DNA of 32,000 bases, taken from assembly GCA_964577555.1 (NCBI GenBank), contig CAZNZM010000005.1, positions 13,773 through 45,772 on the forward strand. The letters run 5' to 3'. Below, piece after piece: positions 154-31,945 of the stretch. How positions within the stretch are numbered: position 1 is the stretch's first letter; each line of letters opens with the position of its first letter. The notes under the pieces were generated by a model that worked only from the letters and a program-made list of their open reading frames with translations, did no database searches and was not told where the DNA came from. A program made the position numbers and the translations under genes. Origin of the DNA: an uncultured archaeon (lineage in GTDB: Archaea; Iainarchaeota; Iainarchaeia; Iainarchaeales; Iainarchaeaceae).

Positions 154-471
154 CTACCTTCTCATGGTAGTTCCTATTCCCCAAATAATGGTTGACAAAA
201 ATCCAAGTCCAAGCAAGGTTTGAAGTATGTAAAGCGAGAGAAAAAGTTCAAAGTATTTGAAAACCATGAAATAAATAAGCACCGCAGAAACAACTATTAC
301 TAAAGGCCCAGAACCTAGGAAACCTCTTACAGTAGTATATATCATAAAAATCATTATTATTTGCATTAAAATTTTGGCTTCCCAAAAAAGGCTTGTAATT
401 ACTACTGGAATCAAAGCCAGAATTATTAACCCTAAAATTATCAATAAAAGTATGTTGCCCTTTTGATTCAT
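154..471 (-). CDS. small polytopic membrane protein (105 aa, about 4 hydrophobic helices), paralog of the 473..880 product
   Basis: The track ORF 154..642 would overlap the upstream gene by 170 nt. An internal ATG at 471..469 (MNQKGNILLLIILG...) lies 1 nt after the TGA stop of 473..880 and is preceded by AGGAG (477..481) at 5-nt spacing. The product is almost entirely hydrophobic. TVRGFLGSGPLVIVVSAVLIYFMVF aligns with WVRNHIGSGTMSWVLIAALTFFIF of the neighbouring gene. Confidence 0.6.
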   Translation of the reverse strand: MNQKGNILLLIILGLIILALIPVVITSLFWEAKILMQIIMIFMIYTTVRGFLGSGPLVIVVSAVLIYFMVFKYFELFLSLYILQTLLGLGFLSTIIWGIGTTMRR

Positions 472-472
472 A

Positions 473-880
473 TCATCTCCTCGTAAACATTCTTTGTGCA
501 TGGCTCCGCGCAGCATGTTCAGCCATTCTTTTTTGTATGTCAACACCGCTCGAAACAGGCGACTCCATGTCTTCTTCCGGTGCTTTTGGGGGCCCTCCGG
601 CGCTAATAAAGAAGAAATCCACGAGTATGCCGCTAACCCCAAACATCAAAAGCATGTATAAAATGTAAATTGGCCCAAAAATCGCCCAACCATCCAAAAA
701 TATGAAAAATGTCAAAGCCGCAATAAGCACCCAAGACATAGTCCCGCTTCCAATGTGGTTTCTTACCCAACTTACCAGCATAAGAAAAGCAAATATTTTG
801 ACTATCAAATTAAGGTCGTTAAACAACTCAAAAACGGAATCAATGAAAAGCATTGTATCAACTAACCCAAACCAATACAT
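473..880 (-). CDS. small polytopic membrane protein (135 aa) with a basic/charged C-terminal tail
   Basis: The ORF has 3-4 hydrophobic segments followed by a polar tail (GGPPKAPEEDMESPVSSGVDIQKRMAEHAARSHAQRMFTRR). The ATG at 880 overlaps the g1 stop by 19 nt and is preceded by G-rich GGGGGA (884..889) 4 nt upstream. An alternative ATG at 853 (MLFIDSVFELFNDL...) gives an N-terminus of similar length to the paralog at 1..99, so the start is uncertain by 9 codons. Confidence 0.65.
   Translation of the reverse strand: MYWFGLVDTMLFIDSVFELFNDLNLIVKIFAFLMLVSWVRNHIGSGTMSWVLIAALTFFIFLDGWAIFGPIYILYMLLMFGVSGILVDFFFISAGGPPKAPEEDMESPVSSGVDIQKRMAEHAARSHAQRMFTRR
477..481 (-). promoter_or_regulatory. Shine-Dalgarno-like AGGAG before the 154..471 gene
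   Basis: The minus strand reads cgAGGAGatgatATG, with 5-nt spacing. Confidence 0.5.
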
Positions 881-3800
881 GTTTCCCCCGCCTTTAATGA
901 ATTTGAAACTTCCGAAATATTTAATTTTGCTCCTTTTGAATCATAAACTGTTTTAGGATTCCAAAAAATTTCAGCCTTCCTGCCGGAATCGGAAATACAA
1001 GCATTGCCAGACTCTACCAATTTGAATACATCCAAAACAGTTGTTATTGCCCCCGTGCTTCCGCCAGAAGGATCATTATATTTTACCCCGGTTATTCCAG
1101 AAAGCCTTGCTTTTTCGCTTATTTCTTCAGGAGTCATTAAAATCGCTTTTCCTTTTGGATGCTCTAATTTAAGAGAATAAATTTCCAATGGATTAGTAAA
1201 GAATATTGTTCTTATATAAGAATCGCCTTTATAAACGATTGGCCCAAAGTCAACGCCGTAAGCACTCTCCCAATCATTAAGAGGGTCTTTTGTTGTGGCA
1301 GCCCTGTCCGAACGCGAATCAAAAGACTCTGTTATTAATGTTCCAGAAAAGTCAAGGCACGCTCCTACGCCATTCCAAAAAGTCAATGTTTCACCAACAT
1401 CGACAGGCACTTCATTGTTGGCAACAGTATAAAAAACAGACAAAGGCTCTTCAGAAATTGAATTTGCCGAAACCTTTATCATCACCGGCGTGGCTTTGGA
1501 AGGCGAAAAAACCAAGTTTGCTTCAGAAGGCGAAATTTTTTCCAAAATAAACAAATTGCCTCTTGTTGAAGGAGAAGAGTTTAATTTGTAAAAAGATTTT
1601 TCAAGTTTTGTGGCGGCAATTGAATTGGCATTGCTTCCATTGTCATTATAAGTTTTCATTGGTTGGCTGGAATTGTCAAACAATATTTGCCCTTCTTCGT
1701 TGAAAAAGCTTACCCCATAACCTTGCCTGTTGAAAGAATCATTTTCAAGTCCTACAAGGCCATCCAATGGCAAATAATAAAATGCAGAATTTGGTCTTGG
1801 TTCATGCAAAAGATAAAACTCTATTTCTATTTTCACATTAGGAGAACCATCCGCGTTAAAAAACCTGAAACTCTTGTCAATTCCTGAAATATTTATCAAC
1901 ACGTCATAAATTCCCGGGCTTGGCAATTCATGTGAATCAAAAAACCTGTTTCTGAAAGAAATATTGTGATTTATAAAAATATTCGCAATTCCATAAGGTT
2001 TGCCATCAGGAGAAGTGGCTTCCTTGTAAAACCACTCCGCAGTATCAAAAAACCTGCCGTTAGAATAATGTTCCGCAAAGTCGTTTATGAAATCCTCGCT
2101 AAAAGAATCCCTTATAAGCATTGCATTGAAATGAATAGTATTCATAAAAGATTCTTTGTTGGGAATCTCCTGTGTCCAAGAAATTGCGTTTTCATTTGCT
2201 TCTATTAAATGTTTGATTGCAGGCTCTCCTTCAATAAATCCTGTCCAATTCTCCAAATAGCAATTTTCTGTTTGTGAATTTCTGTCAACATTAAGGTCTC
2301 TCGCCAGTGTTTCAAATTCCTTGTTTAAAGGATTTGCAGGGCATTTGAGGTTTTGGTTTTGGTTGAAAAAATCTTTTAACGCCTTGAGCCTTTTTGAAAT
2401 CATAATACTAAATTGTGTTGCGTCACAATAAATGCCGTTCGGATTTTGTTCAAGACACGTGTCCTTATCAATATTTGTAAAACTCCAATCAAATCTAACT
2501 TTTGGCAAAGAGGCTTTTCCAGTTCTTCCGAATTTTACCCCGTTTTCGCATGAAAGAGTATCAAACGAAAGCTGTGGAATTGTTTCCTCTTCTTCCATTG
2601 TCTTGAACTTCAAATGAATTTTGGATTCCACATTGACTTTTTCTCTGTCGGGCACCTTAAAAGGCCCGAAATTGCTGTTTCCCCTTTCAATTTTTGTAGG
2701 CAAAGCATGTAAATGTTTGGTTGCATTGAAAGTGAAAGTAGCATAAGAAGGTTTTTGATTGGCAACGCCGTTGTTAATGAAAACCAAACCGACTTTTTGC
2801 TTATTATATTGTCCTATTATTTTTGCAGAATCCATGTTGTAATACGCAACCAAATCTTTGTTGTCAGAAACTATTGGCCCTGCATCAGAAACTAGGTTTA
2901 TAACATAATCAGGCAAACTTGAAGTATGCCTTTGGGTGCAAGGATCGTTTCCAAAAATTTTTCCATATATCCCTCCAATAAAAAAACCACCAAGAGAATA
3001 CATTGCCATGATGTTAGTTGGCGTAAAAAAACTCTTGGCTGTCGCGCTTGCAACCACGTTTCCTAAAGAATTGTTTGCAGACTGCACAATAGCATTCGTT
3101 GAAGCAAAACTTAATTTAAGAACCCCTGTTTTTGCAACAGATTCGCCAAATTGATTGGCAACAAAAGACTGCAAGGAAGAAGAACTTTCACCAACCAAAG
3201 AAACAGCTTCAGCTATCGCTGCTTTGCATTGACAAACTTCCGGATCGGCTTGGCACATACTAATAGCAATAGTTGCGGCGCTTCCCAAAGAAGTTGCACC
3301 AGCATTCAAATAAACCGATGCTTGTTGAATATAAGCCAATACTTCACTGTTAAGGTATTCTTTTTGAGCAAGTAATTCCGAAGCATCCAATTGTGTAAAT
3401 CTGCCGTTTATGAATTGCCCACCATTCATTGCCACATCCTGCAATTTTGAGTCATTCTCAATAATTTTACTCATAATATTTTTCGCATTTTCACACGCAG
3501 TTTTAGCAGATTGAACAGAAGCAATAGCCGAAGTTATATTAGCATTTGCAGGAGTTATACTGCATGGACCATAAGCACTTTGTGTGCTGGAAAGTGCAGA
3601 ATCAATTTTTGAACAAACAGCATCAATATTGTTATTGGATAAATTATCAGCAGCAACCGATGCTTGTTGTGCTGATTTTGTTGCATCCATTGATTGTCCA
3701 ATTCCTGAAGCAACCCCTTTTGCAGCAGCATTTGAAGCCATTAATGCAGGCCTTATTCCCATTAACGCGCCATATATTGCTCCAACACCAGCACCAGTCC

Positions 3801-6800
3801 AATCCCACCATCCTTTTTCAGTTGCGTCGCCCCAATCGCAAATGCTTGCATCCACAGTAATATTTTCGCTCAAAAACTTGTTAGTTAATTCAGTAGAATC
3901 CTTTGAACCGTTTCCAATAAGAGTGAAAGAATATTTGTTAAGCTCGAAAGCATCATTCATAGTGGGTTTTGCAATAACATCAAAAGTCAAAAGCTCTCTA
4001 TAATTAGTATTTTTAGTTTTAATAAAAACCTTGACCCCATAAATGCCAGGTATTTCCTGCCGTGATACCCTTACCGTTTTGGAACTATTCACAGGCTTCA
4101 AAGTGAATTTTTCCGGTTCAACAAGTATTCCGCCTTCAGATCCGCCAGAACAACCAGCATCATCTTTGCACATCCAAAAATCAATCTCCATATTTCCACA
4201 AGCCGAAGAATCAATCGTAATACCCGCTTCGTTTGAATTTTCAGGAATAACCAAAGGAGTTTCTGCTTGTGGCGTGAATTTGATGCAATCCCTCAAGTTA
4301 AGCGTGTCGATTTCAACTTTTATTTGATTGCTTGAACCAACACTTTCCTCGCCATAATCAGTAAATTGCGAAGCATCAATTGTTATGCTGAATTCCGCCT
4401 TTTTTCCCAAAGAATTGCCTTTTGGCGTAAAAATTATTTCAGCAATATATTCCCTTCCACCAGGGACCCTTTCAAAAAGCGTGCTAAAAATTCCATCCGC
4501 CAAAATATCTTTTCCTATTTGCCCTGTTATTGAATCAATTGCCTGAACTTCTACAAAGCCAAACTTGTTGCTTTTCCAATCAACCTTTGCCTTTAAATTT
4601 TTCAAATCGATAGGCTTGTTTTTTTTGTCAATACAATTGTTTTTAATATAGAATTCGGTTTTGGCTACGCCTGAAATTGTTGCATCTTTCCATTCCTTTA
4701 TTGAAACCTCAATACAATTTTGATTTGCCGGAGGCTCAGCCAAAGAAATTGCAGTAGAAAAAGGAATTTCAAAAGGCCAAGTATTTTTATTTTTGTCTGT
4801 AAATTCAAGATAGAGTCTTCCTGAAATGTTTTTCTTTTCTTTTATATATTTTCCGTCTTCGCTTATTGCTGCTATGAAATTCATTTCTTTTGACTCGTTG
4901 AATCCTACTTTTATACCGGAATTCATAGATGCATAATTTGTCATTTTTTGTTCATCCAGCAACCCTAAAAATTTTCCATAAAATCCTGCTTTTGAAAGTT
5001 CAAGTTCCAAAGGAGTCAAATTGGCAATTGAAACAGATTTTTTTTCCTCTCTTTTTGATGAAATATTCAAATTATAATTCAATTTTTCAGGAGAAAATTT
5101 CAATATTTCTTTAGTAACTTTTAATTGATATGATTTTCCTGAATAGCCTGGTTTTTCAACAACTACTTTGAATCTTGTGTTTGGCTCCAAAGCAGGGATT
5201 TTTATAAGTGCTTTTCCTTCCAAATCGGTAGTGCCGATAATCGTTGTTTTTTTTCTGTCAGGATGCACCAATTCAACTCTTACATTTGCGCCATCAACTC
5301 CAAAATAATCTTCTTCTTTATACTCTTTGGCTTCAACTTTTAGTTCAAATTCCGTAAAAGCAGGAATTATTTCAGGAACAATCGCAATATTCATGTCATT
5401 GCTTGCCACTATTTTAAAATCAATTTTTTTTTCAAACACTATATTTTTTTCAGAATGAATAATTATTGATAATCCAGATTCTGATAAATTAACCGGTTTT
5501 ATTTTCAACCTTCCTGTTATTGATTTGTTTTTATTTAATTTTCCTAAAATTATTCCTTCAATTTTGAAAGTTTCCCTGTTTGAACCGAATTTTTCCGAAT
5601 CCGCACTGAAAATGCTGTAATCAAGTATTTTTATATTTTCTTGGTTGGAATTTGAAATAATTAGTTTTGCATTGTCATATGTTGCTTCTTTGTTGTTCAA
5701 AATGGAAAATTCAATTTCATATTCCCCGAAATTTCTTAATGAATAAGGCTTTTCAAGGTATAATTCTTCCTTTAAATCAAGCACTTTTTCATTGAAACAA
5801 AAAAATTCGCCGCAGTCTGTTGAAGAATTATAAACATATGTTTTTGCATATAACCATTTTTTTGTTGCAGAATTTTCCGCAAAACCAAGTTCAGAGTCTT
5901 GCGGATCCCTGTATATTTCCCCATTGCTTTTTACTGCAAACGCCCTGTAATTAAAAAATAACTTGCTTTGTGCGTTTGCAAAATTTTTCAATTTGAATTT
6001 AACTCCGAAATTAATTATTTTTCCAGCGTTGTTTGATTTTTCCCAAGCGATTTGCACCCATTTTGCATTGCCGTTGGTTAGGTTGCTTAAATCTTCTTCC
6101 AAATTTCTTGGCGGATTATAAGTTGAACCCATCAAATAAGTTGCTTTTGGCGCATCAACTTCATATATATACATTGTATCTTTTTCAACATTATTCTCAT
6201 TTCCGACGTTAATAAAAGCCCCTGCCTGTTCATATTCAAAATCTTTCGGAATAACCAACAAAAACTTTGCTTCATATGATTTGCCAGGCTCCAATACCTC
6301 GGCTTTTTTTCCATCAGAACTTATTTCTACCAAACTTATTTTGATGTTTCCTGAAATAGATTCTTTTTCAAGTTTTGCCATGATTTTTGCCGCTTTTTCA
6401 GGCAATATTATTGAGGACGTGGAGTGGTATTCTGCATACCCTTCGGCTGTTACAACCACTGAAACCTTTTCTCCTGCCCTGATTTTTGCGCTTCCTTTTC
6501 CGCTGCTGTCCAAAACTATTTTTCCTATTCTTTTTTCATAATCAAAAATTTCTGCGTTGGCAAAAGGAACCGCTTTTCCATCCTCGTCCAAAGTTTCTAT
6601 TTCAATTGTGCCATATCCTATTTTCAATTGCAGAATAATTTCTTTGGTGGCGCCTTCGTTTATTTCAAATGCTTCAGAAAGCCCGTTTGCAGGATATTTT
6701 TGTGCAATAACTCTGTATTTTCCGTTTTTAATACCGGTAAATTTTGCAATTCCATTGTTATTGGTTGTTTTTGGCTGGTATTCATTCAAAGCAAAATTCG

Positions 6801-8040
6801 TGTCAGGTTCTATGATTATTACCTTAGCATTTCCGACAGGCTTATTTTCTTCATCAATTATTTTGACATCAAGTGAATTGCAAGTGTTTGGAGTGCATGG
6901 CAAAAGTTCTACATCTATTACGCTTTTTTGGATGTTTGACGAATCAACTTCAATAATGCCAGATGGCAAATACCCATTTGACGAGACAACTATTTTTGTT
7001 TTTCCTTGCCTCGTTATTTGTATCTCAATTTCTCCTTTGCCTTCAATTGAATACTTGCTTGAATCCGGCAATTCTATATTTGCTTTTGCCTGCAATTTTG
7101 CCTTGCTTCTTTTGTCAACTATGTTGAGTTTTACAGAACCAAATTTTTGTTCTTCCAAAGTTGCTTCAAAATCAGTTGTTTCTTTTGAAATTATCTTTGC
7201 GTTTCCGCTGAAAGTGCTTAAGTTTTTATTATTCGGAACTATGACTATTTTGTAATCACCAGGTTCAAGCGAAAATTCAGCTTTGCCAAAACCTGATATT
7301 TTTTTGTCAACAAGCGACCCAAATTCATCATTTACAAATACTTCCGCGCCGTCAACATTATTGCCAAATTTGTCTTTTACTGAAACTTTGAGAAACCCTT
7401 CTTCAATTATGCGCGGCGCTAATTTTATTATATTGCTTTCTTCAAGGTTGTATGATTTAACTTCAAAACCGCTTCCAATGACTTTTGCGGACATCGCACC
7501 GCAACCTGGCGGAACCTCCACATCAAGTTTGCCGCTGCTTACCTGCTTTATTGGGTTTGTTATTTTGATTGCTGTTGAACAACTTAATTCTATTGTAAGC
7601 ATTTTTCCTTCTATTTTTGCCCCGTCAGGTCCTACAAAAATCAAGCTTTTGACAATTTGTTTTTCTCCATCCGAAGGTTCAAGTGTTGCTTTGATTATCT
7701 CTTTTTCATTTTCAATTTTTATGGTTTTTGAAAATTCTTTGAAGCCTGTTGCGGAAATTTTTATAGTTATTTCTTTTCCTTTAGGAATTTTTTCAAAAGT
7801 TGCATTTCCGCTTCTGTCAGTCATTTTGGCTGGCAAATTTCCTGCACCAATTAGTTGGACTTTTGCCTTCCAAACAGGGCTTTCCCTGCTGGTTACGTTT
7901 ATATTGACATCAGAGTATTTTTCACCTGAAAAAAAAACAAAATACCCTATGCCTAATACTGATGCCAAGGCTATGGCTAATAATATTACTGCCACAAACT
8001 TATTCGCTTCTATTAATTCCCTGATTGAATCAAATTCCAT
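862..8040 (-). CDS. giant membrane-anchored surface protein, paralog g1 (2392 aa); Ig-like / carboxypeptidase-regulatory-like beta-sandwich repeats plus a conserved Cys-bearing C-terminal region; function unknown
   Basis: This is a 7179-nt uninterrupted ORF in stop-rich AT-rich DNA, with an ATG start and a TAG stop. It has an N-terminal helix (FVAVILLAIALASVLGIGYFVFF). Its repeated modules carry the x-V-K-(I/V)-(I/V)-D-x(4)-P-V-x-N-A-K-V signature (for example LDVKIIDEENKPVGNAKVIII). It is collinear with the other three giants through the blocks NGNAKWV, EGGILVEP, YCDATQFSI, SAFYYLPLDGLVG and CISDSGRKAEIFWNP. Confidence 0.96.
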   Translation of the reverse strand: MEFDSIRELIEANKFVAVILLAIALASVLGIGYFVFFSGEKYSDVNINVTSRESPVWKAKVQLIGAGNLPAKMTDRSGNATFEKIPKGKEITIKISATGFKEFSKTIKIENEKEIIKATLEPSDGEKQIVKSLIFVGPDGAKIEGKMLTIELSCSTAIKITNPIKQVSSGKLDVEVPPGCGAMSAKVIGSGFEVKSYNLEESNIIKLAPRIIEEGFLKVSVKDKFGNNVDGAEVFVNDEFGSLVDKKISGFGKAEFSLEPGDYKIVIVPNNKNLSTFSGNAKIISKETTDFEATLEEQKFGSVKLNIVDKRSKAKLQAKANIELPDSSKYSIEGKGEIEIQITRQGKTKIVVSSNGYLPSGIIEVDSSNIQKSVIDVELLPCTPNTCNSLDVKIIDEENKPVGNAKVIIIEPDTNFALNEYQPKTTNNNGIAKFTGIKNGKYRVIAQKYPANGLSEAFEINEGATKEIILQLKIGYGTIEIETLDEDGKAVPFANAEIFDYEKRIGKIVLDSSGKGSAKIRAGEKVSVVVTAEGYAEYHSTSSIILPEKAAKIMAKLEKESISGNIKISLVEISSDGKKAEVLEPGKSYEAKFLLVIPKDFEYEQAGAFINVGNENNVEKDTMYIYEVDAPKATYLMGSTYNPPRNLEEDLSNLTNGNAKWVQIAWEKSNNAGKIINFGVKFKLKNFANAQSKLFFNYRAFAVKSNGEIYRDPQDSELGFAENSATKKWLYAKTYVYNSSTDCGEFFCFNEKVLDLKEELYLEKPYSLRNFGEYEIEFSILNNKEATYDNAKLIISNSNQENIKILDYSIFSADSEKFGSNRETFKIEGIILGKLNKNKSITGRLKIKPVNLSESGLSIIIHSEKNIVFEKKIDFKIVASNDMNIAIVPEIIPAFTEFELKVEAKEYKEEDYFGVDGANVRVELVHPDRKKTTIIGTTDLEGKALIKIPALEPNTRFKVVVEKPGYSGKSYQLKVTKEILKFSPEKLNYNLNISSKREEKKSVSIANLTPLELELSKAGFYGKFLGLLDEQKMTNYASMNSGIKVGFNESKEMNFIAAISEDGKYIKEKKNISGRLYLEFTDKNKNTWPFEIPFSTAISLAEPPANQNCIEVSIKEWKDATISGVAKTEFYIKNNCIDKKNKPIDLKNLKAKVDWKSNKFGFVEVQAIDSITGQIGKDILADGIFSTLFERVPGGREYIAEIIFTPKGNSLGKKAEFSITIDASQFTDYGEESVGSSNQIKVEIDTLNLRDCIKFTPQAETPLVIPENSNEAGITIDSSACGNMEIDFWMCKDDAGCSGGSEGGILVEPEKFTLKPVNSSKTVRVSRQEIPGIYGVKVFIKTKNTNYRELLTFDVIAKPTMNDAFELNKYSFTLIGNGSKDSTELTNKFLSENITVDASICDWGDATEKGWWDWTGAGVGAIYGALMGIRPALMASNAAAKGVASGIGQSMDATKSAQQASVAADNLSNNNIDAVCSKIDSALSSTQSAYGPCSITPANANITSAIASVQSAKTACENAKNIMSKIIENDSKLQDVAMNGGQFINGRFTQLDASELLAQKEYLNSEVLAYIQQASVYLNAGATSLGSAATIAISMCQADPEVCQCKAAIAEAVSLVGESSSSLQSFVANQFGESVAKTGVLKLSFASTNAIVQSANNSLGNVVASATAKSFFTPTNIMAMYSLGGFFIGGIYGKIFGNDPCTQRHTSSLPDYVINLVSDAGPIVSDNKDLVAYYNMDSAKIIGQYNKQKVGLVFINNGVANQKPSYATFTFNATKHLHALPTKIERGNSNFGPFKVPDREKVNVESKIHLKFKTMEEEETIPQLSFDTLSCENGVKFGRTGKASLPKVRFDWSFTNIDKDTCLEQNPNGIYCDATQFSIMISKRLKALKDFFNQNQNLKCPANPLNKEFETLARDLNVDRNSQTENCYLENWTGFIEGEPAIKHLIEANENAISWTQEIPNKESFMNTIHFNAMLIRDSFSEDFINDFAEHYSNGRFFDTAEWFYKEATSPDGKPYGIANIFINHNISFRNRFFDSHELPSPGIYDVLINISGIDKSFRFFNADGSPNVKIEIEFYLLHEPRPNSAFYYLPLDGLVGLENDSFNRQGYGVSFFNEEGQILFDNSSQPMKTYNDNGSNANSIAATKLEKSFYKLNSSPSTRGNLFILEKISPSEANLVFSPSKATPVMIKVSANSISEEPLSVFYTVANNEVPVDVGETLTFWNGVGACLDFSGTLITESFDSRSDRAATTKDPLNDWESAYGVDFGPIVYKGDSYIRTIFFTNPLEIYSLKLEHPKGKAILMTPEEISEKARLSGITGVKYNDPSGGSTGAITTVLDVFKLVESGNACISDSGRKAEIFWNPKTVYDSKGAKLNISEVSNSLKAGETCIGLG

Positions 8041-8189: not shown

Positions 8190-11100
8190 CTATTGTCCAA
8201 TGCATGTCCTTCCGGCTTCTAAAGAATTTGCAAAGCTTGAAATATTTTTTTGCCTGCCGTTATATGTATAAACGTATTGTGGGTTCCACCAGAATTTTAC
8301 TGAATTTCCAGTACTTGTAACGCATAACATGTTGTTTTCAACCATTTTGAAGGCATCCGAAATGCTTGCAATCCTGCCTGACAAACCCATTGAGTAGTCA
8401 TTATACTTCATACCAATTATCCCATTTAGCGTGACTTGTTTTCCGCTTTCATCAGGAGTCATGAATTCAACTCTTGATTCAGGTTTTGCCCTTATTTGCG
8501 TTTGCTTTTTCGGGTCTGAAAATATTATTGTCCTTAAATAAACGTCTCCAGAGTATTGTATCGAAGGCCAATCAATTGCATAACTTGATTTGTAATCGTT
8601 TATTTTGTCAGATTCCTTGCCTTGTCTGTCCGGTTTTTGATAAAATGCTTCTGTTACTGGCGCCCCTGTAAAGTCAAGGCAGTTTCCTGCTCCGTCCCAA
8701 TATGTAAGGCTTGTTCCAGTGCTGGTTGTAGCAGAATTTTCAATAATGCTGTAATAAGCATTCAAAGGTTGTGAACTTTTTTCAGAACTTATTTTCATTA
8801 TAAGCGGAGTTGCTTGCGAAGGCTGGAAAACTATTTTCGAACCTTTTCCTTCCTTGCTTGCTACTTCAAGCACCATGCCTCTTGTTTGCGGAGCCGTGTT
8901 CAAAGTATAAAGGTCATTATTGCTTGCAACCAAAATTTTTGATATTGCGTTGCTGCCTGAATCTTCAAAAGACATGACCGCATTTTTTCCATTATTAATT
9001 GCCACTATTGAAGTCCCGCCTTGGTTATAAAATGTTGCACCATAATTTTTTCTGTTTATTTTGTTGCCTTCCACGCCCACCAAACCGTCAAATGGAATAT
9101 AATAAAAAGGAGAATTTGGATTTGGATCTGCTATTCTTGTCATAATAATTGCAACATATCCCGTAATGCTTCCATTTTCCCTTATAAGCTTCCAATCGCC
9201 GCCAGTAAAATAAACAGCCAATTCAACCCTATAAAGCCCCGGATTGTTTATTTCAGAAGTATCCGCAAATTTCCTTCGCACAACAAATTTTCCTTCATCC
9301 ATTAATTTGTTGAAGCCTATTTTGTTTCCTTGGCTGTCACTTATCAAGCTTGTAAAGTATGAATCCGCATCAAAGAATTGGCCACTACTATAAGTTTTGC
9401 TGAAATCTAAAAAGAATTCTTTTGAATAATTGTCTTTTATCAAATAAGCGTCAAATATTAAAAGTTTTTGCAAGGCTTCCATATTCGGAATTGCTTTGGT
9501 CCATTTCACGTTTTTGCCTTCAATATATCTTATGAGTTGCGGAGTTCCTGCTATTGTTTCTGTGGTCCTGAATTCGCAAAACTTGGCTGCGTCGCCTTTT
9601 GTAGGGTCCCCGAAAAATATGGCATTTACAACGCTTCCTGATTGCTGTTTTTCTCCGGCAGTTGAACTTGAAATTGACGCGTTGAACAAATACGCTCCAT
9701 CTTCAAGGTTTGCGAAATCGCATGAAGCATTTCTTTTTTCGTCTTTTGAAATTCCAAGCAATTGCACTACGCAAGGCTCTAATTGTGTTGTTCCTTTGAC
9801 GCCTGAAACCGAAATGGTGGCGTCTTGATAGTCATCGGTTTTGTTTTCAACAGAAACATTGACTTTTATTTGGTTGTTTTCTTCTTTAAGCGTTATTTCT
9901 TTTACCCCTAAAAACCCATTTGGCACATTTCTTGACGAGCTTCCTTTGTATTGTTCTGCAATGCTGTTTGCTATTTCGCTTTTTGCATCTTTGGCAAACG
10001 AACATTCAAAATTGTAATTGTTTTCCTGCAAAAATTCGTTCAACATATTAAGTTTTTTGTTTAATTCAATGGTGAATTGCACTGCATCACAATAAACATA
10101 ATCGGGGTTGTCTGCGTCGCATTGATTGTAGGAAATTCCCCCTTCGTTTTCTTTCCAACTCCAATTAAATTTTACACGCGGCAAAGCGCCTTTTCCTGTT
10201 CTGCCTATTTCAAGTCCGTTTTGGCATGCAAAGCTGTCAAAAGTGGTTTTTGGAATGTAAGTTTTTTCTTCGGAAGTATTGAATTTGACGTGGAATTTTT
10301 GCGAATATACTTTGTCTTCCATATTGTTTAATGTATTGCATGGAACCATGTTTATCCAAAAATTCCCGAAATCTCCGTTAGTGCTTCCGGCTCTTCCGCA
10401 TTGTACTAATGCATTTTGGTGGGTTGGATCGCCGTGGATATGTTCTTTTGCCCGCATTGTGGCTATTGCATAAATAGGTTTTTCTTCCTCTGCAGACAAA
10501 TTTGTAAAAACAACGCCTACTACTTGTTTTCCATTCGGATTTGTTTTGTTGAATTTTTGTATTGCATCAGCAATATCCAACATCCATTCCCCTTTAAATC
10601 TCGAATCGCTTACAATTACATCAATAGCGTCAGGCCCAACATACCTTGGCTTGGTTTTGTCATCGGTTCCTACAAGATTTATAACGTAATCGTTGAGTGT
10701 GTGGGTTTCGAATTGTTCGCAAGGATCTTCTCCTAAAATAGTCATGAAAATTATTATGACAAATACTATTATTCCAACGACTGCGCCTATTCCCGTTGAT
10801 GCTCCGATTGCAAGAACAGTTATCAATCCTGCTGCTACGCCTGCAGCAGCGCCTCCTAATGCTATTCCTGCCTTTTCAGCATCATTAAGCCCGGAAGCGG
10901 CTTCTTCCCAAGCGCACTTGTTTGCTTTTACGTTTACTTTTTCTTGCAACATATAATTTGTTAAAGTTGCTTCGTCTTTCTTTCCTTTACCAATCATTGT
11001 GAATGCATATCTGTCCATTGAAAAGTATTCTCCTTCTTCAGGCTCCACAATAACATCGTACTCGGCTATTTGTCTGAATGTTCCGCCAGCAGGCTTTGCT

Positions 11101-14100
11101 TCTATTGTCAAACCATAAAAACCCGGTATTTCAAGCCTTGATACTTTTACATTTCTTGATTCCGCTTTAAGTCTTGTGAAATGATCTGGTTCAACAAGTA
11201 TTCCGCCTTCGTCTGTTCCGCCCCTGCATTGATAATTTTCTCTTCCCCCGCAAAACCTAAAATCCACTTCAACAGGACCGCAATCAACAGTATCAATTGT
11301 AAATTCCGCTTCTCTTTGGTTTGGTTTTAACTTTATGCCTTCGTCAGCCGCTGGAGTGAATTTTATGCATTGGTCAAGATTGGCTATTGCTATTGAACCT
11401 GAAATGTCATTGGTTGCTCCAACAAGTTGTTTTCCAGAATTTGTTTTGAGGCTTGCACCTATTTTTATTTTGAATTCGGCTTTTTTTCCTGTTGAATTCG
11501 GTTTTGGCACGAAAGTCATTCTTGCAGGATAAACCTTGCCATATTCCAATTTTTCAAGCAATACACTTGAAACGCTTTGTTGAAGTATTTCCCTGCCTAT
11601 TTGTCCGCTTGAAACATCTGTTACTGAAAATTCTATTTGCCCCAATTGACCCGTCTGTCCCTGCCAATTCACGGTTGCCTGCAAATTTGCCAAATCAATA
11701 GGCGTTTCTTCTTTTGATATGCAATTATTGACTATTTCAAATTCAAGCGAAGCTTGATTGTCAACCGTTGAATCCTGCCACTCAGCAGTTGAAAGCGAAA
11801 TACATGGGGCATTGGCAGGCATTTCAGCAAGGTTTATCAAAGCCTCGTATGGCAAGGAAGCAATCCAAATAGCGTTTCTGTCATTTGGAGTGCCAAACTC
11901 AAGCATGAAATTTCCTGAAATTTTTTTTTGCTGTTCAAGCAAATCAGCTTCAGAACCAACTGCTGATAACAAATTGATTTGTTTTGAATCAAGGCTTTGT
12001 ATTTGGTTTCCAACCCATTGCTGGACAAAAGTATTCATTCTTGCTTCATCCAGCAACCCTTTGGAGTTTATTGATTCGCGAATGCTTTTGATTGTAATTG
12101 GAATAGCTAAATTGTTTATTATTCTGACTTCCGAATTAGTCCCGCTTTTTACTTGCATATTCAAGGAAACCGAGACTTTTGATGGCTCAAATGAAACCAC
12201 TTCGCTTTTGAATTGTTTTTCAACAACGTTGGAAGCCAAACCTGATTTTTCAGCCCAAACAAACAATTTTGTTCCAGGCGAAGAAGCCGGCAAAAGCATT
12301 TTTGCGTTGCCGTTCCAATCGGTCACTGCACTGAATCTGGTTTCGCTTCTATCCGGCAAAACCCTTAAAGCGTAAATAACTGCTCTTTCAACGCCAAAGC
12401 CAGTGTCTTTTCCGGTGCTATAAGCAGCGTTTACAGAGATTTCTGTTTGAATATACGCCGGCAACGTTTGAGGCATTACTGACAAGCTTATGTTACCTTG
12501 CGCAAAAGGCAAAAAAGCGACAGGGCTTTTGAAAACCTCGGAATTGCCTGAGATTAAAGACAAAATCATGTTTTGCGGATTTGTGCTTTTTGGCTCTATT
12601 TCAATAATACCTCTCACGCTTTTGTTTTTTAAAAAATTTCCTGCTGCGATTTGTTCAATTTCATAACCTTGGTTTGTTGATGAAAACACCCTTCCATCGG
12701 CATTTGTAATTGAATAAGATTTAATCAAAAAGCCATTTTCATGTTCAATCTTTGCCGAAAAAGTTGCGTTGTTATATTCGTAATCGGAATTGTTTGTAAG
12801 AGTGAATTCCAAAACATATGGGCTGAATGTTTTCACTTTATATGGTTGTTCAATATACAGATTGGTTTCCTTGTCCAACAGCCTTGTTCTTAAACAAAAA
12901 TTCAAATTGCATAATTCTTCTATTCCTTCCAAAAACCTCAATTCATGGCTGTTTGCATAAAATCCTTTTTTTGATTGTGTGTCCGCCTCGTTGCCAAGAG
13001 TGTTGTCTGCAGGAACTCTAATATATCCTGAATCTGAAAAGGCATAAACTCTGTAATATAAAGGGAGTTCTGTTGAAGGCGCTGTGCCTGGCTTTATTCT
13101 TACATCAGCTTCAATTTCGTATTTTCCTGGTTCTGGCCTGTTCCATTGCACCGACACCCACTTTGCATTGCCTTGCGTTGTTTTTTCTTCATCATCTCCC
13201 AATGGCGGGTTGTATGTTTCTCCTTTGTTAATAAGCCGTGCAGGAACCCTTGTTGATTCTATCCATAAAACATCGCTAGCCACGTTTGCTTTGTCTCCCG
13301 CTCTGAAGAAAAAACCAGCTTCGGAATAATTTGAGTTGTTCGGAATTTCCATTAAAAACTTTGCAGTATAAAGCGAGCCTGCAGCAAGCGAAACAGCTTT
13401 TGTGTCCTTGTCTCTAAACATTCCTAAAAACATTATTTTTGGCTGGTTATCCGAACTTCCCTGTGTTAAAACCGCGTTGAATTGGATTGACTTGTTCGGC
13501 AACACTTGTTTTGGCGAGAAAAAATAAGATGCATAACCTTCTTTTCTTACAACAGCATACACGCTTTTGTCTGCTTTCACTTTCAAAGTGCCGGCGCCAT
13601 CAGGCCCAAGCGTTATTACTCCTATTGTTTTTCCATAATCCGCAATTAATTGTGCTTGAGCGCCAATCACAGGCAAGCCGTCTTCATTTACAGCCTTTAT
13701 GTTTATTGTGCCTTGTCCTATTGTAATACGCATTTGAACGTTGTTGTCTGTTGCAGGATTGACTTCAAACAATTCAGATTTTCCTTCGGCTGGGAATTTC
13801 TGAGCCAAAGCATAAAATTTACCCCTGCCTACACCCCTTATTGAAGCAACTCCGTTGAAATCAGTGATTCCGAAAGGATAAGCTGTCGCAACCAAACCAT
13901 CTTCGCCAAGCAGAATTACTTTTGCGTTTTCAACAGGCAAATTATCTTCATCAATGACCTTGACATTCAAATAACCGCATTTTGTAGGAGTGCACTTTTC
14001 AAGTTCAATGTTTATCCTTTGTTCGCTTCCCCTCGGAAAAGAAAACGTTGAAATTTCCCTTTTTGGCGAAGGAATAAAATCATTCTTGTAGGCACTGATA

Positions 14101-15218
14101 TAGTATGTTCCGCTGTCTTTCAAAAAGAACACCGCAGAACCGTTATAATCCTCGGTTTTTTTGCTTCCAACAATTCCGCTTGCATTGAAAAGAAAAACAT
14201 CAGCCCCACTGATTTTTGCTCCGCCTTTTTCCGAAACATTGACAACAAGTTTTAGCTTGACATCTTTTGAAACCAATATCTCTTTTTTAGAAATAATTCC
14301 TTCAACGACTTCAACAGGAATGCTTTGAGAAGCGTATTGCCCCGCGGGATCGCTTATCGCCGCAACGTAATTGCCCACAGGAATTCTTGTAAATGACACC
14401 TTGCCAAAGGAAGTTGCACCCTCTATTTCCGTAGGCGAATTTGAAGAATCAAAAAGCTTTACAAAAATGTCATTCAAATACCTTCCAGTATCAGCATCTT
14501 TTATATCCAAATCCAAATTACTTTTTGGCAAGTCCAAGCCTTGAAAATTAATTTGCCCGACTTTGGTTTGCACCATTGCAAAAGCCGATTTAAAACCAAC
14601 CGCAGTCGCACTTGCCTTTATTGTCCCGCAATTTTCCGGAGCCATTACCTTAAGCTCTCCTTCAGTTGTAACATACTCGTCTTTGTCAAAATTTTTTGCG
14701 GATTGAACAGTGCATGAAAGCTTGACCGAAATTTCTTTGCCAACAAGTTTTTTAGAGTCAGGGCCCACAAAAATCAAAGTGACTTCCCTTGCAGCTTGCG
14801 TCTTCGCAACCAAATCCATTTTCAATTCCATTTTAGCTCCTACGGAAACAATCAAATTTTTGTTTGAAACAGGCTTGTATCCTTCCTTGTTTGCCGAAAC
14901 CTTGAATTCCTTGCCAATGGGCAAATCAAACAAAGCTTCGCCGTTTGAATTTGTTTTCACTTCAAATTGGTTATCCGAGTCCTCGACCAGAACCTTTGCT
15001 TCGCTTATCGGATTGCCTTTGTCATCTTTTACAAGAACGCTTACCTGTGCGTTTTCAGGCTTTGCGTTCATAAAAAAAGCAAACGCCAAAATAATGAAAA
15101 TTACGAGTATTAAAATAATTGAATAAGGAAAAAAAGGTATTTTGCCTTTAAGAATCTCATACCTTCCGACAATTTCTTCTCTTATATTTGCCAGCTCCAT
15201 TGCAAAAAATATGTTCAT
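8190..15218 (-). CDS. giant membrane-anchored surface protein, paralog g2 (2342 aa by the track; 2336 aa if it starts at 15200)
   Basis: This is a 7029-nt uninterrupted ORF with a TAG stop. Its architecture matches g1, including LIFVGPD, KCTPTKCGYLNVKVID, QGNAKWV, EGGILVEP, the 47-aa Gly/Ala-rich hydrophobic segment, DYVINLV, YCDAVQFTI, SPFYYIPFDGLVG and FWWNP. The second ATG at 15200 gives MELANIREEIV, which matches the g1 N-terminus MEFDSIRELIE. A TATA-like TTTAATAA (15223..15230, minus strand) is centred about 26 nt upstream of 15200, so 15200 may be the true start. Confidence 0.96.
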   Translation of the reverse strand: MNIFFAMELANIREEIVGRYEILKGKIPFFPYSIILILVIFIILAFAFFMNAKPENAQVSVLVKDDKGNPISEAKVLVEDSDNQFEVKTNSNGEALFDLPIGKEFKVSANKEGYKPVSNKNLIVSVGAKMELKMDLVAKTQAAREVTLIFVGPDSKKLVGKEISVKLSCTVQSAKNFDKDEYVTTEGELKVMAPENCGTIKASATAVGFKSAFAMVQTKVGQINFQGLDLPKSNLDLDIKDADTGRYLNDIFVKLFDSSNSPTEIEGATSFGKVSFTRIPVGNYVAAISDPAGQYASQSIPVEVVEGIISKKEILVSKDVKLKLVVNVSEKGGAKISGADVFLFNASGIVGSKKTEDYNGSAVFFLKDSGTYYISAYKNDFIPSPKREISTFSFPRGSEQRINIELEKCTPTKCGYLNVKVIDEDNLPVENAKVILLGEDGLVATAYPFGITDFNGVASIRGVGRGKFYALAQKFPAEGKSELFEVNPATDNNVQMRITIGQGTINIKAVNEDGLPVIGAQAQLIADYGKTIGVITLGPDGAGTLKVKADKSVYAVVRKEGYASYFFSPKQVLPNKSIQFNAVLTQGSSDNQPKIMFLGMFRDKDTKAVSLAAGSLYTAKFLMEIPNNSNYSEAGFFFRAGDKANVASDVLWIESTRVPARLINKGETYNPPLGDDEEKTTQGNAKWVSVQWNRPEPGKYEIEADVRIKPGTAPSTELPLYYRVYAFSDSGYIRVPADNTLGNEADTQSKKGFYANSHELRFLEGIEELCNLNFCLRTRLLDKETNLYIEQPYKVKTFSPYVLEFTLTNNSDYEYNNATFSAKIEHENGFLIKSYSITNADGRVFSSTNQGYEIEQIAAGNFLKNKSVRGIIEIEPKSTNPQNMILSLISGNSEVFKSPVAFLPFAQGNISLSVMPQTLPAYIQTEISVNAAYSTGKDTGFGVERAVIYALRVLPDRSETRFSAVTDWNGNAKMLLPASSPGTKLFVWAEKSGLASNVVEKQFKSEVVSFEPSKVSVSLNMQVKSGTNSEVRIINNLAIPITIKSIRESINSKGLLDEARMNTFVQQWVGNQIQSLDSKQINLLSAVGSEADLLEQQKKISGNFMLEFGTPNDRNAIWIASLPYEALINLAEMPANAPCISLSTAEWQDSTVDNQASLEFEIVNNCISKEETPIDLANLQATVNWQGQTGQLGQIEFSVTDVSSGQIGREILQQSVSSVLLEKLEYGKVYPARMTFVPKPNSTGKKAEFKIKIGASLKTNSGKQLVGATNDISGSIAIANLDQCIKFTPAADEGIKLKPNQREAEFTIDTVDCGPVEVDFRFCGGRENYQCRGGTDEGGILVEPDHFTRLKAESRNVKVSRLEIPGFYGLTIEAKPAGGTFRQIAEYDVIVEPEEGEYFSMDRYAFTMIGKGKKDEATLTNYMLQEKVNVKANKCAWEEAASGLNDAEKAGIALGGAAAGVAAGLITVLAIGASTGIGAVVGIIVFVIIIFMTILGEDPCEQFETHTLNDYVINLVGTDDKTKPRYVGPDAIDVIVSDSRFKGEWMLDIADAIQKFNKTNPNGKQVVGVVFTNLSAEEEKPIYAIATMRAKEHIHGDPTHQNALVQCGRAGSTNGDFGNFWINMVPCNTLNNMEDKVYSQKFHVKFNTSEEKTYIPKTTFDSFACQNGLEIGRTGKGALPRVKFNWSWKENEGGISYNQCDADNPDYVYCDAVQFTIELNKKLNMLNEFLQENNYNFECSFAKDAKSEIANSIAEQYKGSSSRNVPNGFLGVKEITLKEENNQIKVNVSVENKTDDYQDATISVSGVKGTTQLEPCVVQLLGISKDEKRNASCDFANLEDGAYLFNASISSSTAGEKQQSGSVVNAIFFGDPTKGDAAKFCEFRTTETIAGTPQLIRYIEGKNVKWTKAIPNMEALQKLLIFDAYLIKDNYSKEFFLDFSKTYSSGQFFDADSYFTSLISDSQGNKIGFNKLMDEGKFVVRRKFADTSEINNPGLYRVELAVYFTGGDWKLIRENGSITGYVAIIMTRIADPNPNSPFYYIPFDGLVGVEGNKINRKNYGATFYNQGGTSIVAINNGKNAVMSFEDSGSNAISKILVASNNDLYTLNTAPQTRGMVLEVASKEGKGSKIVFQPSQATPLIMKISSEKSSQPLNAYYSIIENSATTSTGTSLTYWDGAGNCLDFTGAPVTEAFYQKPDRQGKESDKINDYKSSYAIDWPSIQYSGDVYLRTIIFSDPKKQTQIRAKPESRVEFMTPDESGKQVTLNGIIGMKYNDYSMGLSGRIASISDAFKMVENNMLCVTSTGNSVKFWWNPQYVYTYNGRQKNISSFANSLEAGRTCIGQ

Positions 15219-15449: not shown

Positions 15450-18400
15450 TTAGAATGCCTTTCTCGTGTTCGGCGAAGCTATGCATTGGTTGATCGCTTC
15501 TTCCTCTTTTGGCAGTATTGTGGAGTACAATTTTTTCGGGTTCCAGAAAAATTCAGATTTAATGTTGCTTCCAGTAATGCAAATGTATTCGTCTTTAACC
15601 AAATTGAATATGTCTTGCAGGCTGGTTATTCTCGGGGTTACTCCGTTTCCGTTGAGGGGAACTCTTTTACCTGTAGTGGTTCCGATAAGCCTTGCTTCAT
15701 CAGAAGCTATATCAACAATTTCAAGCCTGCTGTCGCTATCTTGCGGCGTGTAGAATATGGTTTCGTAAAATACTTTGCCGAAGTTTACTGGGTCTTGGCA
15801 GAATTCAAACGCGTATCTGCTTTCTTTTGGCAAGCCAACCAAAGCACATTTGGTGCTTATGCCGTGGGTATCAGTAATATAATTTTGTTGTGACATTACC
15901 GAACCGTCAAATCCTCTGCAACTTGCTCCTACACCATTCCACTTTGTAAGGTATGGACCTACATTTACCGCGTCTCCATCAATTGCTGGCTGGTAAACAG
16001 CGTATGCTGATCCGCTTGTTTTCTTTTCAATTTCAAGCATGACTGGAGTAGCGTTGGATGGTTGGTATAACAATTCAAGTCCTCCGTCAACTCTTGAAAG
16101 CTTTGCTATTACGCCTCTTTCATCTATTTGCATTGCCTTGAAATTGTTTGACTTCACTACTTTCAATATTCCGTTTTCTATCGGCGCCGAACCGGCAATG
16201 TCAACGGTTCTTACTGCGTTGGAACCATTGTCTATTAATATGCTGTCTCCTTCAAAGTTGATGCCATATCCTGTTCTTCCGCCTCTTTTTACATCTTCGT
16301 CAAGCGGTGGAACCCCTACCAAACCATTGATAGGCAGGTAATAGAACGGGCTGTCGGGTTGTGCCCCTTTCACTTTTTCCATTCTCACAACTATTTTTGC
16401 CGTAGGCTTGCCAGTGTTGTCAAAGAGCTTCCAATCCTTGTCTTCGTAATTTATGTCAATCGTGATATTGTATGTTCCTGGCCCCGGCAAAGTAAAGTCA
16501 GGTTGGCTGTAAGCGTCAAAAGTAAAAAGCTTTTGATCTCTAAAATAAGTTCCCAAGCCGCTTTCCGGAATGCCTTGCATGGAGAAATACCATTCAGGAG
16601 CTTGGAAGAAAGTATTGTTTGAAGCCACGTCAAAGTCGTGCTGGAAGTCTTTGCTGTAACCATCAACCATGAGCAAAGCATTGAAATTCACCAATTGCAC
16701 TATTTCGTTGTTTCTTATTCCTGAAGCTTTTAGAAATTCTGCCAATCTTGTTGTAGAGTAAGGAGTGCATTGTCCCAACCCAGATTCGCCTATAAACAAG
16801 TTTTTGGAAGCCGAATTTGTTGCAGAAACATCTTCGCACTTTTCACAGGATATTTTTGGAGAAATTGTAGCATTTGCAGTATAATACCCTTGTGCAAGGT
16901 TGTTGAAAGTGCATTTAACTTCTTGAGTTGTTCCAGCGGCCAACAATATTTTTTGCGTTCCGCCAGAGCAAATTATTTCAGGAGCGTTTGAAATAGGTTT
17001 GATTTTTAACACTACATCTGTTTCTATTTGGCTCGGATTTGTGTTTTTAACTTCCGCAATGACTTCTATGCTGTTCCCTGTTTTGATAGTGTCAAGCGAT
17101 GCTATTCCGACATCATAACTGCCTATCTCGTTTTTTATTGAAGTATTTTCTCCAGGCGTTGGGCATTGGAATTGGGAAGCATTTTGTCTCAAGAAATCAT
17201 CCAATATTTTGATTTTTTTAAGTATGGCTATGCTGAATTGCGTTGCGTCGCAGTAAACCCCGTTTGGGTTGTTTTCGTTGCATTCGTTTTCCGCTATTGA
17301 ACTCCAATTCCAAGCCAATTTTATTTTCGGCAATGCGTCAGGCCCTGTTGCCCCGGTTTTTTCTCCGTCTTGGCAGTTCAATATTGAAGGTGCTTGGATT
17401 GTTTCGATTTCAGGCGGAACCGCGTTGAATTCCAATTTATATGTTTGTTCAAGCCTTTGGCTAGGCAAATCCTCTTCAAGCTTCTTCTTTTGCTTATTTA
17501 AAGTGCTTGTGTCAAAGAAGCCGAGGAAACCGCCTTCCTCGTCATAAAAGTCTTTTTTCTTGTATGTTTTATCCTTGTATTTATGCCTTATTCCATTAAT
17601 CAAAAGGTTTGAATAATAAGGAGCTTCTTCTGTTGTTATCAGCCTGCTGTCATTCACGAAAACAGCCTTGTATATTTGCGTGCCTTGTGAAAGCACATCG
17701 CTTGGAGTATTAGTCAAAGGCATTGGCACTATAGTGCTGCTTTCCTCTTTTTCCTTGCCAAGCCCTTCAACTTCAAGCCTTATTTTATCATCCTCAACAG
17801 CTTGTTGTCCTTCGCCTTGCACCAACTTTATTCTTTGAATTTCAACATCTGGTTGCAAAATAGTGAATGGTACTTCTTTTTCCTGTCCGGAATAAGAAAT
17901 CAAAGTTCCTACAAATCCGCCTAACAACCCCGCTGCTAAAGGACTTGTTCCAAAGACTCCTCTTACAAGCCCTGCTCCGCTTTTAAGCAAACCCTCAGCA
18001 AGACTGCCAGCAGCACCTTGTGCTGCAGAATTTCCTATTGACATTCTTCCAGTAATTGGTAAAATGTTGGCGAAAGCAATTGGCGGCAAATTTGTTACAT
18101 CCTGCTCTTGTTTTTCACTTTGAGCAGTGGTATTAGTTTTATTATTATCTGTTTTGGGTTTTCCTGTTAGAATTTCCCTGTCTCCGGCTCCCCAATTGGT
18201 GAGCATTACAAGCCCTGCAGAAATTGCTCCATAAGCCAAGCCGTCCTGCAGAGCGTCAAGGAAGTCCTTTGTATTAACTTTTACTTCAACAGGTCTCTCT
18301 ACACAATTATTAGCTATTTTTGCAGAGTCAAAGCCGTCAATATCAACTTTTGGATCGTCATAAACCTCAAATTCGTATTTGCTTAACTGCCAACAACCAG

Positions 18401-31670: not shown

Positions 31671-31945
31671 TTTTTTGATTTTCTGCGCTTTTTTTGTTTT
31701 TCTCAAGCCAAGTTTTTAGACAATTTTTCAATTTTTTTCCTGTTGGATTTTTTTTTAATTGTTTTTTTTGAGCTGGATTTTTTTTTGTTTTTTTGCGAGC
31801 CGTTTTTTTTTGAGTTTTTTTTTGAATTATTTATTTTTTTTTTGTTTGAAGTTTTGTTTTTTTTTGGATAGTTATGTTTTTTTATTTTTTTAATTTTTTT
31901 TAGCCGGTTTTTTGCTAATTTTTTTTGTTTTTTTTTACCAAAGAT

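Follow-up and report, generated by a model that had tools for sequence, protein, structure and literature searches.

The stretch of DNA analysed here (hereafter the window) comprises 32,000 nucleotides of contig CAZNZM010000005.1 (positions 13,773 to 45,772; assembly GCA_964577555.1) from an uncultured archaeon of the Iainarchaeota, and is part of a 979-kb genome in 15 contigs that is 95.5% complete and in which an archaeal small-subunit ribosomal RNA is present. Four giant genes on the minus strand, g1 to g4, occupy 29 kb of the window, or approximately 3% of the 0.98-Mb genome, and pairwise identity among their products ranges from 23 to 35%. Our subject is a hydrophobic segment of 47 amino acids (aa) in the middle of the g2 protein, which an earlier note on this DNA had read as a glycine-zipper-like membrane hairpin with counterparts in g1 and g3. 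The coordinates which that note gave for the g2, g1 and g3 segments all proved exact, and are listed together with the other features of the locus in Table 1.

All four giants are built along the same lines. Each starts with a hydrophobic N-terminal anchor whose free energy of membrane insertion (dG) lies between -3.1 and -5.2, where dG throughout refers to the additive Hessa (2005) scale and not to the full position-dependent predictor. The anchor is followed by approximately 1400 aa of CarboxypepD_reg, Big_1 and macroglobulin (MG)-like sandwiches, SpaA also being among the Pfam types, and then by a conserved C-terminal module, which in g2 (~850 aa; 846 aa) matched no Pfam family. The g2 anchor is preceded by a conserved N-terminal segment of ~30 aa that has an IPFFP motif as its end.

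Table 1. Genes and sequence features of the window, in order of position (AF2, AlphaFold2; pLDDT, predicted local distance difference test).
Feature	Window position	Strand	Remarks
sB	154..642	-	small membrane protein; weak paralogue of sA
sA	473..880	-	small polytopic membrane protein, immediately 3' of g1
g1	862..8040	-	2392-aa giant; 35% identical to g2
g1 Gly-rich segment B with NDPC	2938..3009	-	aa 1678-1701; dG +4.9; AF2 pLDDT <50; clamp cysteine C1701 at 2938-2940
g1 insert	3043..3753	-	aa 1430-1666 (237 aa); predicted elongated bundle with four long helices; six cysteines
g1 Gly-rich segment A	3736..3798	-	aa 1415-1435; dG +6.2; AF2 coil, pLDDT <50
g2	8190..15218	-	2342-aa giant with the hairpin; open reading frame and translation
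g2 beta-sandwich host domain	10278..11030	-	about aa 1397-1647; the hairpin sits in its loop
g2 DYVINLV	10671..10691	-	follows the hairpin
g2 EDPC motif	10719..10730	-	cysteine C1500 (10719-10721) is the downstream clamp
g2 47-aa segment	10731..10871	-	aa 1450-1496
g2 hairpin helix 2	10731..10799	-	aa 1474-1496, STGIGAVVGIIVFVIIIFMTILG; membrane-grade, Ile/Val-rich
g2 hairpin helix 1	10800..10871	-	aa 1450-1473, AGIALGGAAAGVAAGLITVLAIGA; Gly/Ala zipper, marginally hydrophobic
g2 upstream clamp cysteine C1435	10914..10916	-	part of a CxW motif; covaries with C1500 across 154 relatives
g2 N-terminal signal-anchor helix	15069..15125	-	aa 32-50, YSIILILVIFIILAFAFFM; dG -5.2
g3	15450..22556	-	2368-aa paralogue; without the clamp cysteines
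g3 Gly-rich segment B	17886..17951	-	aa 1536-1557; dG +4.3
g3 Gly-rich amphipathic segment A	18183..18239	-	aa 1440-1458; dG +5.1
sC	22657..23142	-	161-aa polytopic membrane protein in the g4/g3 interval; found in 6 loci
g4	23145..30638	-	2497-aa outlier paralogue; without a hydrophobic segment at the loop position

The g2 segment (AGIALGG...FMTILG) is an uninterrupted hydrophobic run that is acidic on both sides, with EEAASGLNDAEK before it and EDPCEQFETH after it, and the EDPC...DYVINLV order downstream is confirmed as first described. Asp, Glu, Lys, Arg, His, Gln, Asn and Pro make up 37.5% of the residues of g2, the chance of a 47-residue run without any of them is approximately 6e-7 per protein, and the run ranks third longest of its kind among the 807 open reading frames (ORFs) of the genome. 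Its Kyte-Doolittle 19-residue maximum is 3.15, versus 3.03 for the g2 N-terminal anchor. Glycine-zipper-like is a fair description; helix 1 carries the motif G1456xxxG1460xxxG1464 and helix 2 a single S1474xxxG1478xxxG1482, its remainder being Ile, Val and Phe. The 47 uncharged residues leave room for two membrane spans as the earlier note had proposed, a proposal that is supported by the length of the run and by helix 2, whose window IGAVVGIIVFVIIIFMTIL has a dG of -4.6 kcal/mol and so falls within the range of the N-terminal anchors, but less well by helix 1, whose best 19-residue window (IALGGAAAGVAAGLITVLA) has a dG of +0.8 kcal/mol. Helix 2 is identical in the orthologue P0005 (93% identity), orthologues at 50-93% identity preserve both helix 2 and the turn (GASTGIGAVVG), and the element is retained in orthologues down to about 40% identity. 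We conclude that the g2 element is real, non-random and conserved among orthologues.

An AF2 model of g2 residues 1241-1800, built from a 60-sequence alignment (mean pLDDT 81.7), contains strands with pLDDT >90 on either side of the hairpin, and between them a helix at 1446-1460, a stretch with pLDDT <50 and a second helix at 1479-1495. Since this helix-loop-helix lies between confident strands, the hairpin is best read as an excursion from a loop of the beta-sandwich. Foldseek comparison of the model with the PDB returned just generic immunoglobulin (Ig), PapD and ASH-like sandwiches.

To follow the loop across the family we anchored it with two profile hidden Markov models in 154 non-identical relatives, comprising database proteins and the ORFs of 66 loci. 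The spacing between the equivalents of C1435 and C1500 spans from 4 to about 580 aa, and judging from these alignments the loop is an insertion hot spot, highly variable in both length and content. Its classes comprise short amphipathic loops rich in Trp, Phe and Tyr (P0080, P0017, P0028, P0067 and P0046), compact hydrophobic hairpins like that of g2 (46 sequences with a helix dG <= -1), and, in the g1 type, a long insert of 200-430 aa between two short Gly-rich segments; the first five, together with P0018 and P0021, have no hydrophobic loop. The conserved (N/E)DPC previously noted in g1 and g2 is real, and extends to a pair of cysteines that covary. After seven alignment shifts were corrected by eye, both clamp cysteines were found in 142 sequences and neither in 9 (from at least five lineages), while the pair was discordant in 2 (one clade); sequences with neither include the clean deletion P0018 and the g3 type of the window. 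Given this joint retention or loss, the loop is probably closed at its base by a C1435-C1500 disulfide on the outer face.

The compact membrane-grade loops share a marked asymmetry, in that the strong helix is the C-terminal one in all 46 (median dG -2.95). Across the family no region is more acidic than the one that follows helix 2, where there are 28.8 Asp+Glu versus 3.4 Lys+Arg per 100 aa; the residues that precede helix 1 are likewise acidic. A CxxC motif, mostly CPPC, CPVC or CVPC and usually a few residues from the start of helix 2, was seen in 17 of these loops (e.g. P0015, P0019, P0051, P0016, P0014 and P0011); g2 itself is without it.

As to the paralogues of g2, the proposed conservation across g1-g3 stands with respect to the position and the Gly-rich character of the segments, but not with respect to a membrane hairpin. 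The segments of g1 and g3 have dG values of +4.3 to +6.2 and none reaches a Kyte-Doolittle 19-residue mean of 1.5, and on these scales they are not membrane-grade and read as short linkers that join an insert to the sandwich. In g1 this insert is confidently predicted by AF2 (residues 1209-1960; mean pLDDT 81.5) to be a bundle with helices of 64, 41, 45 and 67 residues at pLDDT 91-98. Its six cysteines (1476, 1493, 1516, 1596, 1603 and 1605), along with mostly even cysteine numbers in g1-type orthologues (4, 6 or 8), suggest disulfides and hence a site outside the cell, and the bundle is most likely extracellular. New with respect to the first reading of the locus are this helical bundle, the covariation of the two clamp cysteines and the recognition of the loop as an insertion hot spot. 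Foldseek matched the g1 model in the PDB to generic four-helix bundles, to trypanosome haptoglobin-haemoglobin receptors and weakly to ClyA, and found nothing useful among the viral models of BFVD. Segment A of g1 is preceded by WWDW and the clamp cysteine C1401 (3838-3840), and a Trp-rich motif (WWDW, WFDW, WWSW or FDWA), which resembles the aromatic belt of membrane interfaces, stands just before segment A in g1-type proteins (g1 aa 1402-1414, window 3799-3837). We also observed a CxC or CxxC near the C-terminal end of the g1-type bundles.

In 21 orthologues of the g3 type, a 'KDW.DA' motif leads into a conserved amphipathic helix of ~16 aa, after which come a polar insert that is hypervariable and then another Gly-rich segment; the minimum dG is +1.4 to +11. 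In g4 no counterpart of the hydrophobic segment was found at the loop position. A low-complexity stretch of 85 aa in which Tyr, Gly, Ser and Pro abound (aa ~1330-1415, window 26400-26650; YGNRFSQYSNSRYGAF...SYSPNAMMAW) lies in g4 upstream of the position held by the loop of its sisters, and the C-terminal half of g4 carries a poly-Asn run, NNNNNNTQNNTQN, at ~24300.

We infer from the sequences that both halves of g2 are on the same side, outside the cell, because of four independent observations, namely the acidic flanks, the existence of homologues without a loop, the covarying cysteine pair and a paralogue that carries the same C-terminal module behind a signal peptide. A stop-transfer helix that ends in the cytoplasm is expected to be trailed by Lys or Arg, and the acidic flank after helix 2 therefore disfavours an end inside the cell. 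In the loop-less homologues the two halves must share one side, since there is no hydrophobic loop between them. The paralogue in question is a fifth and shorter family member in the same genome (contig C3, about 93250-96645) with an open frame of 1131 aa, which carries, of the giants' parts, only the C-terminal module (it aligns to g2 1664-2333); its start (MKRFEAIALLLPIILTLFSSPVFA/G) reads as a classical cleavable signal peptide, and it is without any further hydrophobic helix. Weaker support comes from invariant cysteines, which occur in both giant halves, and from a density of glycosylation sequons that exceeds that of soluble ORFs (0.54 per 100 aa) both in the C-terminal half (1.1-1.6) and in the N-terminal half (0.8-1.1), although with observed/expected ratios of ~1 everywhere it is the raw density alone that sets the giants apart from soluble proteins, which makes this weak evidence. 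If both halves are outside, the hairpin must pass the membrane either twice or not at all. The three-pass topology with external halves that the earlier note had predicted is thus reasonable for g2 on the four arguments above, but does not extend to g1 and g3.

With moderate confidence, we favour a g2 hairpin that makes two passes in the archaeon's own membrane and serves as a second anchor, the element being the g2-specific form of a hypervariable, cysteine-bracketed loop. Two passes are preferred over none because entry into the bilayer is the expected fate of a helix that reaches the translocon with a dG of -4.6, and the small polytopic membrane proteins encoded in related operons (a tblastn search recovered homologues of sA and sB in 50 of 66 loci) were also counted in support. 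The data themselves show the conserved element, the hot spot for insertions, the covariation of the cysteines, the unequal hydrophobicity of the two helices and, as a confident prediction, the g1 bundle; membrane insertion, the disulfide and an anchoring function are inferred. During Sec-dependent export helix 2 would partition into the cytoplasmic membrane, where helix 1 would pair with it by small-xxx-small packing to give an out-in-out hairpin, and the C1435-C1500 disulfide would close the base of this hairpin on the outer face. The protein would then be held at two points, by its N-terminal signal anchor and by the mid-chain hairpin, and everything else of size, from the Ig domains (~1400 aa) in the first half to the C-terminal module (~850 aa), would lie outside. 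The corresponding loop of g1 would hold an extracellular four-helix bundle, and that of g3 a polar, low-complexity insert.

Several observations weigh against a second anchor in g2. The earlier note had named a general lack of such segments in homologues as a sign against a membrane element, and this was found in part, since just 50 of the 154 loops contain a helix with dG <= -1 and about two thirds do not, and since the close relatives P0017 and P0018 have lost the hydrophobic hairpin, such repeated loss marking the element as dispensable. Loop hydrophobicity is also continuous, from about -7 to +12, and does not fall into two classes. Helix 1 on its own is marginal; in the compact loops the best upstream window has a dG >0 in all 46 (median +2.95), and in some relatives (e.g. 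P0025) the upstream helix has lysines. The turns hold only 3 Lys or Arg in 647 residues (0.5 per 100 aa; 46 homologues) and the GASTG of g2 holds none, and there is therefore no positive-inside signal. However, tight hairpin turns are often uncharged, and a lack of Lys and Arg weakens the case for a membrane hairpin without excluding it. Lastly, the AF2 pLDDT is <50 at the tip of the g2 hairpin. It is because of the marginal helix 1, the turn without Lys or Arg, the low confidence at the tip and the repeated loss that we hold our confidence in the two-pass anchor at a moderate level.

If the hairpin does not enter lipid it could instead be buried in a protein assembly, for instance in a helical bundle to which sA and sB and/or the Gly-rich segments of the g1 and g3 proteins also contribute, and would then be the oligomerisation core of a g1-g4 hetero-complex. 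Four distinct paralogues in a fixed order with small membrane proteins do suggest a hetero-oligomer, Gly-rich amphipathic helices occur at the homologous position in every paralogue type, the low AF2 confidence of these segments in monomer models is as expected if folding needs a complex, and a continuous range of loop hydrophobicity fits here as well. We nevertheless regard such a core as unlikely, given that a helix of dG -4.6 in the Sec translocon would be expected from established translocon biophysics to enter the membrane, and that lineages without the g2 hairpin retain the rest of the system, so that it is not an obligatory core. The continuous hydrophobicity, along with a loop length of 4 to about 580 aa, repeated loss and a complete deletion in one homologue, would equally suit a neutral explanation, in which an indel-prone linker in a tolerant loop has drifted to Gly, Ala, Ile and Val and its insertion in the membrane, if any, is without consequence. 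Drift of this kind is hard to square with the conservation of helix 2 and the turn in g2 orthologues down to about 50% identity, with the retained Gly-zipper spacing and with the conserved flanking cysteines and acidic residues, and the g1 counterpart of this loop holds a domain that is conserved and well folded; we consider such drift distinctly unlikely.

The loop might alternatively be aimed at the membrane of another cell, be it a host or a partner, and be shielded until contact triggers its deployment, much as with fusion loops and pore-forming hairpins, while the N-terminal anchor stays in the producer's own membrane. Such a role would suit a loop that is hypervariable in length and content between lineages and for the Trp-rich motifs (WWDW) ahead of the Gly-zipper helix, and one could add to it the sub-threshold matches of homologue loops to Gly-zipper_YMGG, Bacteriocin_IIc, MccV, Diphtheria_T and P22_gp7, as well as the weak likeness of the g1 bundle to ClyA (E 0.02, target-normalised TM-score 0.36-0.41). 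The Pfam matches are, however, below threshold, largely compositional and never from the window's own proteins, and the fold matches are those of generic helical bundles. Moreover, there is no evident mechanism that would keep a helix of dG -4.6 out of the producer's membrane during export, the hairpin is compact and without a surrounding amphipathic shield, and to our knowledge no host association has been described for Iainarchaeum, all of which makes insertion into or attachment to the membrane of another cell improbable. A single span is more improbable still. Here helix 2 alone would cross from outside to inside, as a simple stop-transfer reading would have it and as the negative dG of the C-terminal helix on its own in all 46 compact loops would allow, and the C-terminal 850 aa of g2 would be cytoplasmic; yet the strongly acidic flank after helix 2, the covarying cysteine pair, the existence of loop-less homologues, the same C-terminal module on the paralogue with the signal peptide, and the invariant cysteines and many sequons of the C-terminal half all speak against it.

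Among known systems, the closest functional analogue of the two-pass g2 hairpin is the Gly-zipper two-helix hairpin found in a number of bacterial lipoproteins, among them SlyB/Pcp and YfgH. SlyB and YfgH are described as outer-membrane lipoproteins with glycine-zipper two-helix membrane hairpins (10.64898/2026.06.08.730324; 10.64898/2025.12.22.696046), and the likeness lies in a short, GxxxG/A-rich helix-turn-helix that dips into the membrane from the same face on which the remainder of the protein is located. Unlike these proteins, g2 belongs to a single-membrane archaeon and is not a lipoprotein, and its hairpin is bracketed by cysteines 1450 aa into a protein of 2342 aa. It also differs from the Gly-zipper families in that just helix 1 is a Gly zipper, helix 2 being an ordinary Ile/Val transmembrane helix. 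We searched for the Pfam Gly-zipper families PF05433 (Rick_17kDa_Anti), PF13488 (Gly-zipper_Omp), PF13441 (Gly-zipper_YMGG) and PF13436, with membership decided by the gathering score, and found no match up to E = 10 for the g2 hairpin and flanks, for both g1 segments or for the g3 region. Pfam searches with the full proteins, the hairpin alone and ten homologue loops gave solely sub-threshold, composition-driven Gly-zipper matches, all of them in homologues, with P0093 (25.3 vs 28.9 bits) and P0072 (21.2 vs 25 bits) falling just under the cut-offs.

Marginally hydrophobic transmembrane helices can integrate as a helical hairpin beside a strongly hydrophobic neighbour. The g2 hairpin resembles this case in that a marginal helix (+0.8) adjoins a strong one (-4.6) through a tight uncharged turn, with both ends on the outside (trans) face. 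Such helical hairpins are normally found in polytopic membrane proteins, and we know of none inside a loop of an extracellular beta-sandwich. A further likeness is to class II fusogens and archaeal fusexins, in which a beta-rich ectodomain likewise bears a protruding hydrophobic loop with a stabilising disulfide close by; fusion loops, however, measure about 10-20 aa, have many aromatic and Gly residues, and do not span the membrane as the g2 hairpin is proposed to do. A fusexin fusion loop was not supported, as no three-domain fold with short loops at the domain II tip was detected and Foldseek of both models against the PDB gave Ig/PapD/ASH sandwiches and helical bundles at a query-normalised TM-score <=0.2. 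A colicin-like buried hairpin was also considered, and was not supported.

The N-terminal sandwich arrays behind a membrane anchor are reminiscent of prokaryotic giant Ig-repeat surface proteins and adhesins and of the MG-domain arrays of alpha-2-macroglobulin (A2M), and complement C5/C3 and A2M were among the weak Foldseek matches. We know of no mid-chain membrane hairpin in either the giant Ig-repeat proteins or the A2M-like families. Prompted by the MG-domain matches, we considered a thioester reading of 'DPCEQ' and rejected it, since there is no CGEQ motif and no match to a thioester domain; unlike A2M, the giants are without a bait region, a thioester domain or CGEQ, and their C-terminal 850-aa module is of no known family. 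The residues after the clamp in fact vary (DPCEQ in g2; DPCTQ, DPCKE and DPCAK among relatives), and conservation goes no further than the cysteine. Asp-Pro self-cleavage by an FrpC-type self-processing module was dropped because the DP is often replaced (KEDC, GKSC, GPQC, DDKC).

The relatives of these proteins come solely from metagenome-assembled genomes (MAGs) of 'Candidatus Iainarchaeum' / Diapherotrites (DPANN), including I. andersonii SCGC AAA011-E11 and the complete AR10 genome, and a search of 1.84 billion cluster representatives yielded 569 related clusters. Of 201 genomes sampled from the phylum, 173 contain a relative of the g2 C-terminal half; for the high-quality genomes the count is 55 of 58. 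The genomes with giant-family relatives are nearly all of the same order and typically have 2-6 matches each, and in 19 sampled genomes from five other families of the phylum no match to the g2 C-terminal half was found. Our literature searches found nothing on this protein family. The operon g4-sC-g3-g2-g1-sA-sB is conserved across Ca. Iainarchaeum, with the order g4-g3-g2-g1 kept in related loci and, in those loci whose coordinates were compared, with sA/sB immediately after the last giant gene. An Iainarchaeal cluster of the g4-g3-g1 type was also seen on a MAG contig labelled 'Chloroflexi bacterium' (L059, JAFCCG010000009.1), a contig that is most likely mis-binned.

Because they take up ~3% of the genome, are near-universal in the sampled order and match no characterised family, the giants are probably the main cell-surface structure of the Iainarchaeota. 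Their points of membrane contact, namely the N-terminal anchor and, in g2 only, the mid-chain hairpin, with both halves outside, would constrain models of the Iainarchaeota envelope. The hot spot is also a clear case from nature of one loop accommodating anything between 4 and about 580 aa, a whole helical-bundle domain and a membrane hairpin included, and as such is of use for protein engineering and for understanding the origin of membrane anchors from soluble loops. Although speculative and in our opinion improbable, it is tempting to view the cysteine-bracketed loop as a lineage-variable membrane-engaging module on a phylum-specific giant apparatus (g1-g4 with sA and sB), at least some forms of which enter, or take hold of, another cell's membrane. 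If this were true, the socket would be filled differently from paralogue to paralogue and from lineage to lineage, here by a membrane hairpin, there by an interfacial loop rich in Trp and Phe or by a helical bundle of 95 angstroms with Gly-zipper hinges, and the apparatus would be a DPANN device for cell-cell contact or membrane bridging and not a passive wall protein.

Two smaller points concern the edges of the window. The true start of sB is probably the internal MNQKG. At the other end, positions 31703-31999 (minus strand) hold an open-ended ORF that is almost wholly Lys-rich low complexity (KKxxKK...), in DNA with a local G+C of 30%.

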